In this document: positions 19,331 through 25,766 of the stretch, piece after piece
Layout of the letters: each line of letters begins with the position of its first letter
How positions within the stretch are numbered: position 1 is the first letter of the stretch
NCBI GenBank assembly: GCA_037139095.1
Contig: JBAXHD010000008.1
Span: 16,781-80,780 of the forward strand
Source: Actinomycetota bacterium
Lineage (GTDB): Bacteria; Actinomycetota; Acidimicrobiia; Acidimicrobiales; Ilumatobacteraceae
DNA length: 64,000 bases
Direction: 5' to 3'
Translations under genes and position numbers: made by a program
The notes under the pieces: generated by a model
Told to the model about the DNA's origin: nothing
What the model saw: the letters and a program-made list of their open reading frames with translations, nothing else
The model's database searches: none

Positions 19331-19540
19331 CCCTGATAGATCGTTGTCGGCGTCTATCGAACGCAGCAAATGTGCCGCTTTCTCTACCGCGCGGCGGGCC
19401 TGAGTAACTGCTCGTTCGGCGGCCGGACGTTTGCTGGCGCCGCCCCGAATGGCTTGGCTCAGTTCGGCGAGAGCCACTTCGGCAAGCTCTTCGGAGATGG
19501 CATCAAGGCGGTCGGCCAGTGTGTCGAACTGCTCGCTCAT
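19313..19540 (-). CDS. Hypothetical small helical protein (75 aa)
   Basis: Its start overlaps the glcF stop (ATGA at 19537-19540). Its 3' end overlaps the convergent MOSC gene by 18 nt. Alanine/glutamate-rich and predicted helical. Confidence 0.5.
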   Translation of the reverse strand: MSEQFDTLADRLDAISEELAEVALAELSQAIRGGASKRPAAERAVTQARRAVEKAAHLLRSIDADNDLSGSHELD

Positions 19541-20697
19541 GGCAACAAGTCGGCGACGATATCGAGTGGGTGCATCGTGACCACTGAGGCGGCCGCAAGG
19601 TGCATGGCGCAGCCTGGGTTAGCGCTGGCAACCACAGTTGCTTGCGATGCCGATGTAGCACGCGCGATTGCTGCAAGCTTGCGGTCGCGTATCTGGCCGG
19701 CGAGCTCGGGCTGAAGCGCCGAGTAAGCGCCGCCAGCGCCGCAGCACAATCCGTCGTCGTCGAGCTCGACAATGTCGGCGTAACGGCCAAGCACTGTGCG
19801 CACTGGCATGTGCGCTTTTTGCACGTGGCGCAGATGGCACGGGTCTTGCACGATGATGCTTGGCCGGGCTCGGGTTGGGTCGGCGGCGGGCAACGAGTGG
19901 AGCCTGTCGGCAAGCCACTCGTGTACGTCGAGCACGCGTGACGAAAACGTGCGCGCTTCATCGGTGTCGAGTAGATGCCCGTAGTCCTTCATGGCCGCGC
20001 CGCAGCCTGCCGAGTTGACCAACACTGGTGAGTCGCCGGGCATGCTCGCCATGGTGCGGATAGCCAGACGTTGTGCCTGCGATGTGAGGCCCGCGTGTGA
20101 GTGCAAAGCTCCACAGCATTCGCCTCCCTTGGCAGCCACCGCGCAGGTGGCTCCGGTGGACTCGATGACGCGTTGCGTGGCGCGATGTGTGGGCCGCTGC
20201 CACGCGTCCATCACGCATCCGGTGAATACGTACACGTCGGTACCGGTGGGCTTGAGCGCCGGGCCTCGACGCAATGCAAGTTTGGTGAGTCCAGCGCGCT
20301 TGGGCACCAGATGCAGTCGTTGGGCCACGGCGATAAGCGAAGAGCCCACGAGCAGCAACCGATGATGAGCGAGCGCACGGAACGCGAGGCGCTGCCAGCG
20401 CGGTGTGCTGCGATGGTGAGCGGCCAGTGACTCACGCGTGTCTTCGATGAGATGCCCGTAGTTCACGCCAGATGGGCACGCCGGTTCGCATCCGCGGCAC
20501 TGCACGCACGTTTCCATGAACCCAATAAACGCGTCGTCTACCGGGGCGTCTTCGTAGATGACCGTGCGCATCGCCGCAATGCGGCCGCGAGGCGACAAGC
20601 TCTCTTCGCCAGTAGCGCGGTATGTGGGGCAATGTGGCAGGCATAGGCCACAGCCCACACAACTCGCTAGTTCGGCTTTGTTGAGCTGTAGCTTCAT
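19537..20697 (-). CDS. glcF: Glycolate oxidase iron-sulfur subunit (GlcF-like (Fe-S)-binding protein)
   Basis: Start at Met23 of ORF 19537..20763. Two ferredoxin motifs (CVGCGLCLPHCP and CVQCRGCEPACP) are followed by two cysteine-rich CCG-type domains. Confidence 0.85.
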   Translation of the reverse strand: MKLQLNKAELASCVGCGLCLPHCPTYRATGEESLSPRGRIAAMRTVIYEDAPVDDAFIGFMETCVQCRGCEPACPSGVNYGHLIEDTRESLAAHHRSTPRWQRLAFRALAHHRLLLVGSSLIAVAQRLHLVPKRAGLTKLALRRGPALKPTGTDVYVFTGCVMDAWQRPTHRATQRVIESTGATCAVAAKGGECCGALHSHAGLTSQAQRLAIRTMASMPGDSPVLVNSAGCGAAMKDYGHLLDTDEARTFSSRVLDVHEWLADRLHSLPAADPTRARPSIIVQDPCHLRHVQKAHMPVRTVLGRYADIVELDDDGLCCGAGGAYSALQPELAGQIRDRKLAAIARATSASQATVVASANPGCAMHLAAASVVTMHPLDIVADLLP

Positions 20698-20746
20698 CAA
20701 CGCTTCACCGTAGTTGCCCGATACCAGTTGAGAGACATACGAACGC

Positions 20747-21544
20747 ATGCCCGAAGGCCACACAGTCCACCGAATCGCTCGGGATCATGGCCGACTCCTT
20801 GTCGGCGAGTCGCTGCGGATCACATCGCCTCAGGGTCGATTCGCTGCCGATGCCGCCCGGGTTGATGGACAGGTACTCACTGATCTCGAAGCAGTTGGAA
20901 AGCATCTTTTTTATTGGTTCGCGAGCGGCGACATCGGCCATGTGCACCTCGGTCTCTTCGGAAAGTTTCGGGTGGCCAAGGGTCCAGTGGCCCCCGACGT
21001 TGTTGGCATGGTGAGAATGCGAATGCAATCGCGCAACGCCACCATCGATCTTGCCGGTCCCACCGAATGCTCGATTGGCACGCTCGATGATCGCGCCAAG
21101 ATCCTCAAACGACTCGGACCTGACCCGCTGGGCAAACAGGCCGACTCAGAGCTGGCCATCACGCGGATGGGTAAGTCGAAGCAGGCCCTTGGCGCAGTGC
21201 TGCTTGATCAAGCAGTGCTCTGCGGGGTGGGCAACGTATATCGCGCCGAGGCGTTGTTCGTGTGCGGCATACATCCGTCACGTCTTGGTCTCGCACTGAG
21301 CCGCCACGAGTTGCAGATGTTGTGGGACACGGTGGTCGCAATGCTTCGTCAAGGCGTGAAAGACAATCGCATCATCACCGTGGGCCCGGAACACCTCACC
21401 CGCGTCAAGGGTCGAGCATTTCGCCGAGGAGAAGCCACGTTCGTGTATCACCGCGACCGTTGCCTGCGCTGCGACACGCCAATTCAGACGGTTGAGCTTG
21501 CTGGTCGGCCCTGTTACTTCTGCCCGACCTGCCAGCCGCGCTGA
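20747..21544 (+). CDS. nei: Fpg/Nei-family DNA glycosylase (endonuclease VIII-like)
   Basis: 265 aa. Has the MPEGHTVHR N-terminus, an H2TH region (LLDQAVLCGVGNVYRAEALF) and a C-terminal zinc finger CLRC...CPTC. Confidence 0.85.
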   Translation: MPEGHTVHRIARDHGRLLVGESLRITSPQGRFAADAARVDGQVLTDLEAVGKHLFYWFASGDIGHVHLGLFGKFRVAKGPVAPDVVGMVRMRMQSRNATIDLAGPTECSIGTLDDRAKILKRLGPDPLGKQADSELAITRMGKSKQALGAVLLDQAVLCGVGNVYRAEALFVCGIHPSRLGLALSRHELQMLWDTVVAMLRQGVKDNRIITVGPEHLTRVKGRAFRRGEATFVYHRDRCLRCDTPIQTVELAGRPCYFCPTCQPR

Positions 21545-21669
21545 TTCTTTTGTGTCAAGAAATTGTGTAGATCTTGCGTTTGGTGTTCACATGACGATTC
21601 TTTTTCGCTGAGGGAAAGTATTTTTCGACGGTCTGGTCGTGGCGGCCAGAGTCGAAAGGGCGAAGACAC
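21545..21669 (+). promoter_or_regulatory. AT-rich intergenic region upstream of the collagen-like repeat protein
   Basis: Hand count of 21541-21600 gives 23/60 G+C (38%), against about 60% in neighbouring coding lines. I cannot assign a specific -10/-35. Confidence 0.3.
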
Positions 21670-23469
21670 ATGTTCGGTGATCGGTTTGCAAAGTCAGCCA
21701 TGCGTTCGAGGTGGGCGGCAATTGGAGCCGCAGTAGCGGTGGCGTTTGGCGCTGGCGGCGTCGGATGGGTCGCTCATGCGACATCGGGCGCCTCGATCTC
21801 GTCGCTCGTCAATATTGCACCGTGTCGTCTGTTCGATACTCGCGGCGGCGGAGACACCGTGGGCGACCGGTCGACACCGCTTGGATCGGGCGAAACATTT
21901 GACCGGCAAGTGTGGGGCACCAATGGCGACTGCACAATCCCGTCGACTGCAACCGGCATTTCGTACAACCTCACTGTGCCTGACCCCATCGTTACTGGAT
22001 TCGTGAAGATCTATCCGGGCGACGCCGCCGTCCCGAACGCCAGCGCAATCAACCCGTCGGCTCTCTTGGGCACCAAGGCAAATGGCGGCATCGTCGGCCT
22101 GTCGGCTTCGGGCAGCATCAAGTTGTTCAACCAGGTCGGACCGCTGAACGCAATTCTTGACATCACCGGATACTTCGTTGGGGTCACGCCCGGCACCGCT
22201 GGCGCCCCTGGCGCGCTCGGTACGAACGGAACCAATGGAACGAACGGAACGAACGGCACCAACGGCACCAACGGCACGCCTGGAACCAATGGCACCAACG
22301 GCACCAACGGGACAAACGGCCTCGATGGCGTCAATGGTGTGAGCGGAGCCCAGTACGGCCGCGACATCGCCGCGGTTTCGGCGGTTGTGGCCGGGTCGCC
22401 CGGCGCCACGCCCAATGATGTGTCGATCACCGTGGGGGCCGATGGGTTCCCAGTGTTGGCGTTCCTTGTGCCCAACGATCCCCTGTTGCCGTTGAACGGC
22501 GAGTTGACCATCGTGAAGTGTCTCGACCCTGCATGCAACGCTCCTGTATTGCCAGTGGGCACGAGCTACACCGGATTACTGACTCATCTCACGTCCATAT
22601 CGATTGGCTCCGATGGAAACCCGGTGGTGGCATTCAGCGACACCCTTGGAGCGCTCAGTGTTACAAAGTGCGCTACGCCGAACTGCGTCAGCTTCGGACC
22701 CGCCCAGACGCTCGACCTCATCGCTGCGCTCGATCCGTCGATCACTGTCGGTGCTGATGGAAACCCAATCGTGTCGTACTACGACTCGTTGAATACATCG
22801 CTGAAAGTGGCACATTGTGCCGATGTGGACTGCCTTGTCGTAGACACACCGGTCACCGTTGACCCTGCCGTGGCAGATCCCACGGTGGACGCTGGGTCCT
22901 TTTCCTCGATCACGATTGGTGCCGATGGGAACCCTGTGATCTCGTATTACGACTTCGCCGGCTCTGTAAAGCTCGTGAAGTGCAGCGACGCTACCTGCGG
23001 CACGTACAGAGCTCCGGTCACGCTTGACGCATCAGCGCTTGGCAACACCTCAATTGCTATTGGTGTCGACGCCAATCCAGTGATCTCGTACGCCGATTTG
23101 AATAGCACGGCGCTGAAGGTTGTTCATTGCAGCAATCAAGCTTGCTCTGCTGCGGTTACGCCGGTCATCTTGGATGCCGCTGCCGGCGCAGTGTTCACAA
23201 CGTCATTGGCCATTAGCGCCGACGGCAATCCGTACGTGAGCTACACCAGTGGCGGCGACCTGAAGGTTGTCCGCTGCACGAACGTAGCGTGCACCACCAC
23301 GAAGGCACCGCTCACCGTGGACGCTACGGGTGGTGTTGGATCGCAGGCGATGACGATCGGCAGCGACGCCAACCCGGTGCTCGCATATGTTGACTCGGCT
23401 GTGACAGGCGACGTGAATGTGGCCAAGCTGACCCACAGCTCGTGGACTCCATACGGCTGGGGCCGCTAA
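21670..23469 (+). CDS. Secreted multidomain protein: signal peptide, actinobacterial lectin-like domain, collagen-like (GTN)n stalk and seven Cx4C repeat modules
   Basis: 599 aa. Signal-like segment MRSRWAAIGAAVAVAFGAGGVGWVAHA (the start may be 21700). The CRLFDTR...ILDITGYF domain recurs in many actinobacterial surface proteins. There are 18 G-X-Y triplets at aa 175-228, followed by 7 repeats of IGxDGNPVISY.D....LKVV.Cx4C. Confidence 0.8.
   Translation: MFGDRFAKSAMRSRWAAIGAAVAVAFGAGGVGWVAHATSGASISSLVNIAPCRLFDTRGGGDTVGDRSTPLGSGETFDRQVWGTNGDCTIPSTATGISYNLTVPDPIVTGFVKIYPGDAAVPNASAINPSALLGTKANGGIVGLSASGSIKLFNQVGPLNAILDITGYFVGVTPGTAGAPGALGTNGTNGTNGTNGTNGTNGTPGTNGTNGTNGTNGLDGVNGVSGAQYGRDIAAVSAVVAGSPGATPNDVSITVGADGFPVLAFLVPNDPLLPLNGELTIVKCLDPACNAPVLPVGTSYTGLLTHLTSISIGSDGNPVVAFSDTLGALSVTKCATPNCVSFGPAQTLDLIAALDPSITVGADGNPIVSYYDSLNTSLKVAHCADVDCLVVDTPVTVDPAVADPTVDAGSFSSITIGADGNPVISYYDFAGSVKLVKCSDATCGTYRAPVTLDASALGNTSIAIGVDANPVISYADLNSTALKVVHCSNQACSAAVTPVILDAAAGAVFTTSLAISADGNPYVSYTSGGDLKVVRCTNVACTTTKAPLTVDATGGVGSQAMTIGSDANPVLAYVDSAVTGDVNVAKLTHSSWTPYGWGR
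22219..22317 (+). repeat. Eleven tandem 9-bp units (GGN ACN AAY; one unit is GGC ACG CCT) encoding (Gly-Thr-Asn)n
   Basis: Read directly and in frame with the ORF: ggtacgaac ggaaccaat ggaacgaac ggaacgaac ggcaccaac ggcaccaac ggcacgcct ggaaccaat ggcaccaac ggcaccaac gggacaaac. Confidence 0.9.
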
Positions 23470-23481
23470 CTTGAGCCAGAT

Positions 23482-24357
23482 CTACGCGCTGAGCGGCTCA
23501 ACCCCAGGGTTGAGCCGCAGCGTCGGATCAAACTCGTGTTTGAGACGCTTGTGGAGCGCAGCGATTGCCGCATCGGCCTTTCGAGGCTGAGCGGCATCGC
23601 TGCGGTGCACAACGCCAATACCAATCTCGGCCACAAACGGTGTGCTGATCGACATTGATCGCAACGTAGATGGCGCGACCGACCATCGATGCGCCGTAGG
23701 CAACGACGGCGGACCGTCGACCGGTGCTAATCCCGCTAGGGCCGCCTGCTCGGCGACATCGGCGCCGTGGCCTTCGAGGAGCACCCATGTGGTGGTGCCG
23801 TCCCAGAGAACGCTCACAGGGCGATACAGCGTGGCGAAGGTAACCCACGGATCGACCGAGGTAGAGAACCACTGCGACACAGCAGCCAGCGGCCGGGTGC
23901 GAAGAATCACGTGCCCGAGAAAGCCCAATGTGCCCTGCGAGCCCACCAGCAACCGACACAGATCGAAACCCGACACGTTCTTCACGGTTGGCCCGCCAGC
24001 TTTCACCACGACACCCGCAGCCGACACGTAATGAGCTTGCAACAACGCATCGCGAAGAGGTCCGTAGCCGAGTCGGCGAATGTCGCTGAGGCCACGAGCC
24101 AACGCGCCGCCCACAGTTCCGGATGCGGGCAGTGACACGCATTGGCCAACAGCGGCCAACGCCTCGTTGAGTTCGACGACGGGTGTACCTGCGCCGCAAT
24201 GCACGATCATCTCATCAGCTTGAATCGATTCGATTCCGCTGGGCGCAGCAACAACGCGGCACCCGGCCACGGGCCCGCCACGCGTAGAGAGTCCGGAGAT
24301 TGTGACATCGCCGTCGTTGATGCCACCGACCTCGCTGGCGAAGGCTGTCAGATCCAT
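23482..24357 (-). CDS. glcE: Glycolate oxidase FAD-binding subunit GlcE-like
   Basis: Start at Met12 of ORF 23482..24390, overlapping the glcD stop by 10 nt. The FAD_binding_4-like fold lacks the C-terminal oxidase domain, as in GlcE. Confidence 0.8.
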   Translation of the reverse strand: MDLTAFASEVGGINDGDVTISGLSTRGGPVAGCRVVAAPSGIESIQADEMIVHCGAGTPVVELNEALAAVGQCVSLPASGTVGGALARGLSDIRRLGYGPLRDALLQAHYVSAAGVVVKAGGPTVKNVSGFDLCRLLVGSQGTLGFLGHVILRTRPLAAVSQWFSTSVDPWVTFATLYRPVSVLWDGTTTWVLLEGHGADVAEQAALAGLAPVDGPPSLPTAHRWSVAPSTLRSMSISTPFVAEIGIGVVHRSDAAQPRKADAAIAALHKRLKHEFDPTLRLNPGVEPLSA

Positions 24358-25766
24358 GCGCCCTCCGGAACGTGATGCACGTCGCCACAACCCGATGCAC
24401 TGGGCAAGACCTTGGTTGGGTTAGCAAGCGCGGTGGGGTCGAATGCCCGGCGCATTGCTGCCTGTGCTTCGAGATCTGCTGCGGCGAACATCAGCGGCAT
24501 GAGGTCGCGCTTTTCAAGACCGATGCCATGTTCGCCACTGAGCACTCCCCCAGCGGCAATCGACACGCGCACGATCTCTTCGCCGGCAGCATGCACGCGC
24601 TCCATGATTCCGGGCTCACGCTTGTCGAAGATCAACAGCGGATGCAGGTTGCCGTCGCCGGCATGGAACACGTTCATCACCAGCAGATCGTGGCGCTTGG
24701 CGATCTCGTACACGTGCTTGAGCACCTCGGGCAGCTTGCGCCTTGGCACCACGGTGTCGTGCAAGTAGTAGTTGGGCTTGATGCGGGCGATGGCGCCGAA
24801 GGCGGTCTTTCGGCCCTTCCAGAGCAAGGCCCGCTCGGCTTCGTCTTGGGCCACTCGCACGGTGCGCGCCCCGTGCGATTTGGCGATGGCGATAATGCGT
24901 TCGACTTGGTCATGAAGGCCGTGCGGTAATCCGGCGACCTCGACCAACAAGATGGCCGCTGCATCAACCGGTAGCCCAGCGTGGATGTAGTCCTCTACTG
25001 CTTGGGTGCACAACTGATCCATCATCTCGAGCGCCGCTGGCACCATGCCGTCGGCGATGATTGCGCTCACGGTTTCGGCGCCGTCGTCGACGCGGTTGAA
25101 ATCGAACAGCATCGTGCGAACCGTTGGCGCGTTTTGAGTGAGGCGCACGCAGATCTTGGTGGCAATACCGAACATGCCCTCGCTGCCTACGAATGCGCCG
25201 CGCAGGTCGAGGCCATCTGGGTCGGGGTCTTCGCCGCCGAGGGTGACAATGTCGCCTTCGGGGAGCACCACTTCGAGCGCCACAATGTGTGCCGCTGTAA
25301 CGCCGTCGGCTAGGCAGTGCGGACCGCCGGAGTTGTTAGCCACGTTGCCGCCGATGGTGCAGCTTTGTTGGCTGCTCGGGTCTGGGGCGAAGTGCAGTCC
25401 GAGGTGTGCAACGGCCTTGGTGAGGTCGAGGTTCAACAGGCCGGGCTCTATCCATGCTTGGCGATTCTCAGCGTCGACCGACAGCAGGCGATCCATCTTG
25501 GCAAGCGAGATCACAACGGCACCATCGAGTGGGATGGCCCCACCCGCTAGACCTGTGCCACTACCCCGCGCCACATAGGGCTTGTTGTGTCGAATGCACG
25601 CCCGGATAACGCTCTGCACCTCGGCGGTTGTTGTTGGGAAACACACGATCGACGCGTCGCCGGAGAAATTTGAGGCGTCGCGCCGATACAGGCTCACCTC
25701 GGCGGCGCCCACGCGCACACGGTCGGGAGCCATTGCCCGACGCAGATCGTCGGCAAGCGTTGTCAT
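24348..25766 (-). CDS. glcD: FAD-linked oxidase, glycolate oxidase subunit GlcD / D-lactate dehydrogenase family
   Basis: 472 aa. Contains ARGSGTGLAGGA and SGEHGIGLEKR, with FAD_binding_4 plus FAD-oxidase_C architecture. Confidence 0.9.
   Translation of the reverse strand: MTTLADDLRRAMAPDRVRVGAAEVSLYRRDASNFSGDASIVCFPTTTAEVQSVIRACIRHNKPYVARGSGTGLAGGAIPLDGAVVISLAKMDRLLSVDAENRQAWIEPGLLNLDLTKAVAHLGLHFAPDPSSQQSCTIGGNVANNSGGPHCLADGVTAAHIVALEVVLPEGDIVTLGGEDPDPDGLDLRGAFVGSEGMFGIATKICVRLTQNAPTVRTMLFDFNRVDDGAETVSAIIADGMVPAALEMMDQLCTQAVEDYIHAGLPVDAAAILLVEVAGLPHGLHDQVERIIAIAKSHGARTVRVAQDEAERALLWKGRKTAFGAIARIKPNYYLHDTVVPRRKLPEVLKHVYEIAKRHDLLVMNVFHAGDGNLHPLLIFDKREPGIMERVHAAGEEIVRVSIAAGGVLSGEHGIGLEKRDLMPLMFAAADLEAQAAMRRAFDPTALANPTKVLPSASGCGDVHHVPEGAWI

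Follow-up and report, generated by a model that had tools for sequence, protein, structure and literature searches.

A collagen-stalked beta-propeller protein of Ilumatobacteraceae as a candidate trimeric fibre of an unannotated modular family

This work concerns one gene in a 64,000-nt stretch of DNA (hereafter the window), positions 16,781-80,780 of contig JBAXHD010000008.1 in the Ilumatobacteraceae assembly GCA_037139095.1; all coordinates below are positions in the window. The gene encodes a protein of 599 amino acids (aa) (Table 1), and tblastn returned the gene itself only, indicating that there is no second copy in the 64-kb window. An initial annotation had divided the product into a signal-like N-terminus, an N-terminal domain (hereafter the N-domain), 18 G-X-Y triplets and seven repeats, and this four-part description matches the translation. 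Taken together, the results reported here are consistent with an exported homotrimeric fibre that has the N-domains as its base, a stalk of ~15 nm and three propeller heads; we infer both the trimerisation and the ligand, and put this reading at about an even chance. They also place the protein in a large modular family from Acidimicrobiia, as yet unnamed, whose members keep the N-domain and differ in their C-terminal module.

A four-part, exported-looking protein

Table 1. Features of the gene and its upstream region, with positions in the window
Feature	Residues (aa)	Position	Strand	Description and basis
AT-rich leader/promoter region		21545..21669	+	GC content 0.464; conserved in orthologous loci
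Predicted leader hairpin		21621..21660	+	U-run pairs with Shine-Dalgarno GAAAGGG (21654-21660); RNAalifold
Coding sequence	599 + stop	21670..23469	+	ATG start; open reading frame list, translation
Signal-peptide-like N-terminus	1-37	21670..21780	+	Putative cleavage after AHA
N-domain	38-174 (137 aa)	21781..22191	+	Beta-sandwich, conserved Cys52-Cys88 pair; AlphaFold2
Collagen-like stalk	175-228	22192..22353	+	18 unbroken G-X-Y triplets, 10 of them GTN; regular-expression scan
Imperfect 9-nt DNA tandem repeat		22225..22320	+	AACGGCACC x10.7, encodes GTN triplets; 79% matches, Tandem Repeats Finder
Seven-bladed beta-propeller	229-585	22354..23424	+	AlphaFold2, Foldseek
Blades (approximate)	242-298, 299-346, 347-402, 403-450, 451-501, 502-549, 550-599
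C-terminal tail		23425..23466	+	KLTHSSWTPYGWGR; takes the place of the blade 7 C-x4-C

The N-terminus (MFGDRFAKSAMRSRWAAIGAAVAVAFGAGGVGWVAHA, followed by TS after the putative cleavage point) is composed of a basic n-region, a Gly/Ala-rich h-region and an A-H-A site. The h-region reaches a maximum Kyte-Doolittle hydrophobicity of 1.94 over 15 aa (1.6-2.0 across the family), and every family member carries a small-x-small site (AHA, SAS, ANA, AQA) 20-25 residues past the basic residues. The 14 cysteines of the protein form conserved pairs (C52/C88 and six C-x4-C), and such pairs fit an extracytoplasmic, oxidising location. Judged from its sequence, the protein looks exported via a Sec-type signal-like N-terminus, in agreement with the initial annotation, which had called it secreted. 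Tat export was rejected because the motif is R-x-R-W, with no twin arginine, and a lipoprotein was rejected because the lipobox is not conserved, the 'AVAC' of orthologues being AVAF here. The signal motif R-[ST]-R-W-A-A-I-G-A-A-V-A-V...G-G-G is kept among relatives that are only 35-40% identical in the mature part, and such conservation of a signal sequence among distant paralogues may point to a signal dedicated to export or sorting.

Stalk, N-domain, propeller and family

The G-X-Y run scored 35.1 bits against the Pfam Collagen model (PF01391; cut-off 27.2), which supports the earlier proposal that it is collagen-like, and because glycine makes up 12.5% of the residues, 18 in-phase glycines are not due to chance. 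Comparison of orthologues showed runs of 16-19 triplets that are always uninterrupted and in which all insertions and deletions are whole triplets. The stalk is also the most variable part of the protein, with 54% of its positions varying among close orthologues, and at the same position the paralogues carry mostly Pro-rich GPxGPx runs of 6-21 triplets. The NCBIfam equivalogs for streptococcal Scl and Legionella Lcl matched the G-X-Y run only, scoring 28.3, 20.6 and 19.9 bits where the cut-offs are 325, 400 and 500, and a search of the full protein against PDB sequences gave low-complexity collagen matches only, for example to the 'spindle fibril' 8zxl. N-glycosylation of the nine N-G-T sequons in the stalk was rejected, since orthologues have GVD, GID or GIN triplets and the sequon is not conserved.

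The view that (GTN)n is an unusual triplet holds for characterised bacterial collagens but not for viral sequences. A scan of IMG/VR for runs of at least five GTN triplets showed them in at least 120 viral contigs, in open reading frames of median ~500 aa, where they sit inside longer unbroken G-X-Y runs with GPQ, GAT and GAD triplets. Since the viral GTN runs are mixed with canonical triplets, GTN is an ordinary flavour of environmental phage collagen-like segments. Neither the N-domain nor the propeller was present in any of the 120 viral GTN-bearing open reading frames examined.

The AlphaFold2 model of the N-domain is a nine-strand beta-sandwich with a predicted local distance difference test score (pLDDT) of 94.9. 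No match to this domain was found among Pfam or NCBIfam models or, by profile, among PDB sequences, and its own profile matched 38,046 protein clusters (50% identity) at E <= 1e-3 and 12,792 at E <= 1e-30. On these sequence comparisons, the N-domain is a large domain family without an existing Pfam or NCBIfam model. The initial annotation had described a domain of this type as repeated in many actinobacterial surface proteins; the number of clusters, often with 3, 6 or 9 tandem copies, bears this out. Foldseek placed the model closest, among PDB structures, to the Bdellovibrio Bd2133 fibre tip (E 1e-4, template modelling (TM) score 0.5), a beta-sandwich packed as a trimer about a three-fold axis (PMC10769870). 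Other weak matches were a phage cement protein, CBM6/35 (TM ~0.4) and the BclA C-terminal domain and C1q heads (TM ~0.40-0.45, E ~6e-3 to 3e-2), and the domain also matched uncharacterised phage and tail-fibre proteins in BFVD.

Copy number was counted in the 150 best N-domain representatives, a list biased to multi-copy proteins. The results showed three tandem copies in 128 proteins, 100 of which have them at the extreme C-terminus, compared with four copies in 3 proteins, five in 10, six in 8 and nine in 1. None of these 150 multi-copy representatives contains a G-X-Y run of at least six triplets. They include proteins with matrixin, PKD, fn3, CarboxypepD_reg or Rha78A-Ig domains, and the named ones come from Acidimicrobiales. 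Among 77 single-copy N-domain proteins, a G-X-Y run stands straight after the domain in 34 and an HxHDxRYYTK neck in 6 more. In addition, a scan of one genome per species with the N-domain profile gave 136 confirmed loci, 80 of which are listed. Essentially all of the listed loci are in Acidimicrobiia-type metagenome-assembled genomes (MAGs; Ilumatobacteraceae, Acidimicrobiaceae, Acidimicrobiales), several of which have 6-8 or more N-domain paralogues among the loci listed. The propeller follows the N-domain in only three of the 80; in the remainder, ~20 unrelated C-terminal modules take its place (NHL/YncE-type propellers, pentapeptide repeats and DUF6923 among them), often behind a collagen-like run.

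The C-terminal part consists of seven repeats of 57, 48, 56, 48, 51, 48 and 50 residues, set by [GS]-x-D-[GA]-[NF]-P, with the blade motif S-I-x-I-G-x-D-G-N-P-V-I-S-Y-x-D...L-K-V-x-x-C-x4-C; the C-x4-C is present in six of the seven. AlphaFold2 modelling of aa 229-599 with an 80-sequence alignment gave a pLDDT of 91.6, a predicted TM score of 0.91 and 28 strands arranged as seven four-stranded blades, in support of the suggestion that the repeats are propeller blades. The top 22 Foldseek PDB matches of the propeller were all Photorhabdus PLL/PHL lectins (E 7e-16 to 9e-14, TM 0.70-0.83), with 12-14% identity in the structural alignments, followed by the CV39L lectin, sialidases, GH145 enzymes and rhamnose-glucuronate lyase (E ~1e-9 to 1e-10). 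As modelled, the propeller is a structural neighbour of propeller lectins rather than a member of their family, and it is these neighbours alone that suggest that it may bind glycan. The term 'lectin-like' in the initial annotation is accordingly apt for the fold neighbours of the propeller and not for the N-domain.

The C-x4-C propeller is a family without a solved structure. DUF1936 (PF09151), the only Pfam family besides Collagen to be recognised, matched marginally above its cut-off of 25, at 26.9 bits with the full protein and 30.3 bits with the C-terminal domain; the match spans only positions 14-30 of the 34 in the model, corresponding to the LKVV-x-C-x4-C of blade 6 (17 residues). It also matches 21 of 80 relatives, and the name carries no functional information. 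No Pfam match to the BNR (Asp-box) family was found in the protein, and BNR_4 matched just 3 of the 80 relatives. Metal binding by the C-x4-C was considered because PyrI_C matches 3 of the 80, and was rejected: with two cysteines per blade in an exported protein, a disulfide appears more likely from the sequence. All close orthologues share the C-terminal tail, KLTHSSWTPYGWGR, without change. Its last 8 residues have a pLDDT below 50, and its form ...T-[RH]-[TS]-S-W-T-P-N-G-W-[GED]-[RS] recurs in ~20 distant relatives. At least four tails recur in the propeller family: ...SWTPNGWGR, C-x4-C-x-P-[YF]-x-R-R-R, ...SPWW-x-x-GGR and ...VDGVV-x-IFE.

A whole-protein search returned 642 relatives. Eight clusters are ~80% identical, 593-605 aa long and derived from freshwater metagenomes and 'Actinobacteria bacterium' MAGs, the orthologues having been assembled from samples of the Lake Zurich/Rimov type; dozens more relatives, 545-600 aa long and nearly all from Acidimicrobiia MAGs, share 30-40% identity across 88-99% of their length, and all are 'hypothetical'. 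The architecture had been thought novel. The existence of dozens of proteins with the three parts contradicts this, but the family is indeed unannotated, and because the architecture is common and the family unannotated, the reservation that it might be a common annotated family proved half right. Among the best 120 relatives, ~45 non-redundant proteins have the N-domain; it is joined to the propeller by a collagen-like run only in 27, by a 'DHNHDDRYYTKxQxD' neck only in about 9-12 and by both in about 5. The sharply conserved motif DHNHDDRYYTK-x-Q/E-x-D lies directly after the N-domain, alone or ahead of the collagen run, and may be a neck or trimerisation element. The propeller was also found with other N-terminal parts and in 14-blade versions. 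In a distant lineage, four paralogues of the same architecture, three of them in tandem, lie within 10 kb (positions 1672-11722 of L005, a 56-kb contig) and adjoin GH77 and P450 genes. A literature search on DUF1936, the DRYYTK motif and Acidimicrobiia with collagen found nothing relevant.

Locus, leader region and evolution

The gene order is tal-LOG-MOSC-glcF(-)-nei(+)-the gene studied here(+)-glcE(-)-glcD(-)-hyp-DUF948-rarA. The place of the gene in the tal-to-rarA order is kept in seven orthologous contigs, four independent ones plus three from GTDB species representatives. Orthologous proteins are 82-96% identical for the neighbours and 79-80% for this protein, making its gene the fastest evolving of the block. 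The Nei-Gojobori method, applied against three orthologues, gave ratios of nonsynonymous to synonymous substitution rates (dN/dS) of 0.16-0.17 for the whole protein, 0.05-0.06 for the N-domain, 0.15-0.21 for the stalk and 0.20-0.22 for the propeller. The coding sequence has a GC content of 0.607 and a third-position GC content (GC3) of 0.70, equal to those of the flanking genes. The initial annotation had taken the gene to be accessory; the fixed synteny in seven contigs, the dN/dS of 0.16 and the neighbour-like GC3 of 0.70 contradict this, and recent horizontal transfer was rejected on composition and synteny. One of the orthologues, 79% identical, is in a lake MAG (L009, CAMASN010000001.1) whose title, 'Ferrithrix thermotolerans DSM 19514 isolate LH-02apr19-314', carries a taxon name that looks wrong for a freshwater Acidimicrobiia MAG.

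The surrounding genes had been described as a split glycolate oxidase locus. This is fair if worded as 'glycolate-oxidase-like', since GlcF, GlcE and GlcD are the best NCBIfam matches and all are sub-equivalog; the substrate of the oxidase may be other than glycolate. The split is old, and the Fpg/Nei gene shares the gap with the gene studied here. The glcE (23482-24390, - strand) and glcD (24348-25766, - strand) open reading frames overlap by 43 nt, and the GlcD/E/F region extends over 19537-25766. No tRNA or Rfam element was found near the gene, the only tRNA being 37 kb away.

The AT-rich 125-nt gap upstream of the gene, pointed out in the initial annotation, was confirmed: against a window mean GC content of 0.608, it is the lowest 125-nt window of the 64 kb. 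Its identity to orthologous loci is 72-82%, although the synonymous divergence (dS) of the coding sequence is ~0.8. A simple sigma-70 scan of the leader found no consensus promoter. RNAalifold with five orthologues predicted a hairpin of -20.5 kcal/mol whose inner 8-bp stem is invariant and in which one outer pair changes between GC and CG; the predicted pairing of the U-run with the Shine-Dalgarno sequence is in the manner of a fourU thermometer. In addition, a direct repeat TTGTGT-N7-TTGTGT lies at 21550-21572, just 3' of the nei stop codon. It is invariant in six of seven aligned loci, has two substitutions in the remaining one (L009), and could be an operator or promoter element.

The trimeric-fibre reading, its alternatives and its meaning

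In the fibre reading, three chains would join as a homotrimer. Their G-X-Y runs would wind into a collagen triple helix ~15 nm long (54 residues at 0.286 nm each), with the globular domains on either side nucleating it or holding it together. As a set, the three N-domains would reproduce the three-copy tandem unit of other proteins and would serve as a common base, bound either to the cell envelope or to some shared partner, and the three propellers would be distal, faster-evolving multivalent binding heads, most plausibly for glycan. The whole would be disulfide-stabilised and, much like a collectin, ficolin or tail fibre, would serve a freshwater Acidimicrobiia bacterium at or near its surface as a stalked device for multivalent recognition or adhesion.

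The three-fold organisation is argued from several lines of evidence: tandem N-domains come preferentially in sets of exactly 3 (or 6, or 9); collagen runs go with single-copy proteins and are missing from three-copy ones; either of two linkers, or at times both, can occupy the same position; the best fold neighbour of the N-domain is a trimeric fibre tip; and published fibres join propeller lectins, collagen shafts and TNF-like domains (PMC12923769). A triple helix is supported by the strict glycine periodicity under purifying selection, by the canonical triplets at the same site in paralogues and by the mixing of GTN with canonical triplets in the viral runs. The polarity of base and head is suggested by an N-domain that evolves ~4x slower and a C-terminal module that varies across paralogues, a pattern shared with tail fibres, Bdellovibrio MAT fibres and Cwp/SLH-type surface proteins.

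Several points weigh against this reading. The main argument against a stable triple helix is the atypical composition of the stalk, in which the X position is T, V or I in 84% and never Pro, the Y position is N or D in 80%, and charged pairs are absent. The stabilising pattern known from characterised bacterial collagens, be it Pro at X, charged pairs or Thr at Y, was not found in the stalk, and because it has no Pro or charged pairs and has Thr at X, its intrinsic triple-helix stability may be low; characterised bacterial and viral collagens have Thr at Y, and without glycosylation (GPT)10 does not fold (PMC11923368). The fold matches of the N-domain are weak (TM 0.4-0.56), 37 of the 77 single-copy N-domain proteins have no recognisable trimeriser, and 3 of the proteins with both N-domain and propeller have neither collagen run nor neck. 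The copy-number list, being biased to multi-copy proteins, shows that three copies far outnumber four and not how three compare with one or two. As to the ligand, searches of PDB sequences with the propeller profile and with the single sequence found nothing significant, and no PLL/PHL chain even at E up to 1 and up to 10, respectively. Trp is absent from the blades, the only ones after aa 82 being W592 and W597 in the C-terminal tail, and it is by stacking on Trp that the inter-blade sites of PLL type bind sugar (PMC6943638). That the protein is attached to the cell is conjecture, and neither an LPXTG motif nor a C-terminal hydrophobic anchor was found in the protein.

The composition of the stalk also favours a monomeric exported two-module binding protein, in which the G-X-Y run would be an extended, possibly glycosylated polyproline-II-like spacer, without a triple helix, much like the Thr/Pro linkers found in secreted glycoside hydrolases. 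Collagen peptides rich in Thr can adopt a random coil when unglycosylated (PMC11923368), some members join the same two domains without a G-X-Y run, and a stalk that varies at 54% of its positions and between 16 and 19 triplets would suit a spacer. However, a spacer needs no glycine at every third residue, and in every orthologue the periodicity runs through 48-57 residues without a break, with indels of whole triplets only. Moreover, canonical collagen triplets stand at the same site in paralogues, the HxHDxRYYTK linker co-occurs with collagen runs as if both oligomerise, and the runs occur in single-copy N-domain proteins and in none of the three-copy ones. We regard the monomer as possible but doubtful. 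It is rather unlikely that the hydrophobic N-terminus is instead left uncleaved as a membrane anchor, holding the N-domain at the membrane while the stalk lifts the propeller through the wall: the segment RSRWAAIGAAVAV..GGG is unusually conserved in paralogues 35-40% identical elsewhere and rich in small-residue packing motifs, and the protein has no other anchor motif, but the hydrophobicity is moderate (maximum 1.6-2.0 over 15 aa) and every member has a small-x-small site placed as in signal peptidase I substrates.

The Foldseek matches to sialidases, GH145 enzymes and rhamnose-glucuronate lyase (E ~1e-9 to 1e-10) raise the question of a catalytic propeller, a glycoside hydrolase or lyase with the N-domain as its carbohydrate-binding module, and the BNR_4 matches in 3 of 80 relatives and the fusion of the N-domain elsewhere to enzymes (matrixin, heparinase-like protein) are in line with it. 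The lectin matches are nevertheless better by five orders of magnitude and higher in TM, no Pfam or NCBIfam enzyme family matches the protein, and the residues conserved in all blades (the G-x-D-G-x-P turn and the C-x4-C staple) look structural and do not form a single active site, making catalysis quite improbable. We give very little credence to a recently acquired accessory gene, or a fibre gene derived from a phage or an extracellular contractile injection system (eCIS), inserted in the glycolate oxidase operon. The gene does interrupt glcDE and glcF, GTN collagen-like runs are common in viral contigs, and eCIS fibres have similar module sets; yet every orthologous contig, across several MAG species, has the insertion along with nei, and GC and GC3 equal those of the neighbours. 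Nearby there are no phage, eCIS or defence genes (PADLOC found none, and the one weak PHROG match is of unknown function), the sole tRNA is 37 kb off, and none of the 120 viral GTN-bearing open reading frames has the N-domain or propeller.

Collectins, ficolins, C1q and gliomedin (collagen plus olfactomedin propeller) combine a short collagen stalk with three globular recognition heads. The stalks of mannose-binding lectin and ficolins have roughly 11-20 triplets, and the 18 triplets here are within the range of collectin and ficolin stalks, which fold when trimerising domains flank them. This comparable stalk length is an analogy only, since lineages and heads are unrelated, the stalk here lacks Pro/Hyp and there is an extra N-terminal globular domain. 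In Gram-positive bacteria, wall-anchoring modules occur as triple repeats (3 x SLH, 3 x CWB2). The N-domain resembles them in that three copies mostly stand next to each other at one end of a protein, joined to extracellular enzymes of diverse kinds, and single-SLH proteins with trimeric coiled coils parallel a single-copy N-domain with a trimeric stalk, although SLH and CWB2 have no sequence or fold relation to it. Scl1/Scl2 and BclA are likewise exported with an uninterrupted G-X-Y run beside globular domains, and the run of BclA is also Thr-rich and length polymorphic; in contrast, Thr is here at X rather than Y, LPXTG is absent and the Scl/Lcl models score far below their cut-offs. BclA/C1q-type heads are C-terminal to the collagen run, whereas the N-domain is N-terminal to it. 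PLL/PHL lectins share the seven-bladed fold and the blade size of ~48 aa; they differ in that the propeller here has a per-blade C-x4-C motif specific to its family and no inter-blade Trp, and in that PLL has no stalk or extra domain.

The eCIS 'eBAP3' tail fibres, read as flexible trimeric binding fibres, consist of a beta-propeller lectin, a collagen-like shaft and a TNF-like domain (PMC12923769). The likeness is one of module kinds, a propeller, a collagen-like shaft and a jelly-roll-type beta-sandwich being joined in one chain; the order is reversed, the beta-sandwich here being N-terminal and the propeller C-terminal, and the protein here has its own Sec-type signal. Neither eCIS nor phage genes lie beside the gene, whose neighbours encode transaldolase, LOG-like, MOSC, GlcF, Nei, GlcE, GlcD, DUF948 and RarA proteins. 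The mosaic adhesive trimer (MAT) fibres of Bdellovibrio form a paralogous family (PMC10769870) in which, as here, the N-terminal part is conserved and the C-terminal binding tips are exchanged. Their shafts are beta-helical rather than collagen, the fold match is weak (TM ~0.5), and the beta-sandwich forms the distal tip of a MAT fibre but the conserved N-terminal module of the protein here.

A wider proposal, which we hold only tentatively, is that the N-domain is an unrecognised envelope-anchoring module, in Acidimicrobiia and further Actinomycetota, acting three-fold and that the protein belongs to a 'bacterial collectin' system, a paralogous set of surface fibres with collagen stalks and interchangeable heads. 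The three-fold unit would then be made either of three tandem copies on enzymes or of one copy per chain gathered by a collagen-like triple helix. Propellers, NHL, pentapeptide and other modules would be the heads, the fibres would bind glycans, particles or other cells, and the G-[T/V/I]-[N/D] stalk might be glycosylation-stabilised.

Lakes and oceans hold abundant Acidimicrobiia of the acIV/Ilumatobacteraceae type, most of them uncultured, and to our knowledge almost nothing is known about their cell surface. The collagen-stalked recognition design is already known from animals, phages, eCIS and some bacteria, and each part of the protein is of a known kind. What is new is this family, with its large unmodelled N-domain family that appears to work in threes and its C-x4-C propeller family, and a Pro-free G-[T/V/I]-[N/D] stalk in a cellular protein. 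With its single copy and kept synteny, the locus offers a clean example of this large unannotated family. Should the trimeric-fibre reading be false, two high-confidence new domain definitions, the beta-sandwich and the C-x4-C propeller, remain. If it is true, it would supply a Pro-free, Asn/Asp-rich collagen variant useful for folding rules and biomaterials and a new wall- or partner-binding module working in threes, and would give tens of thousands of 'hypothetical' proteins a name and a function that can be tested.

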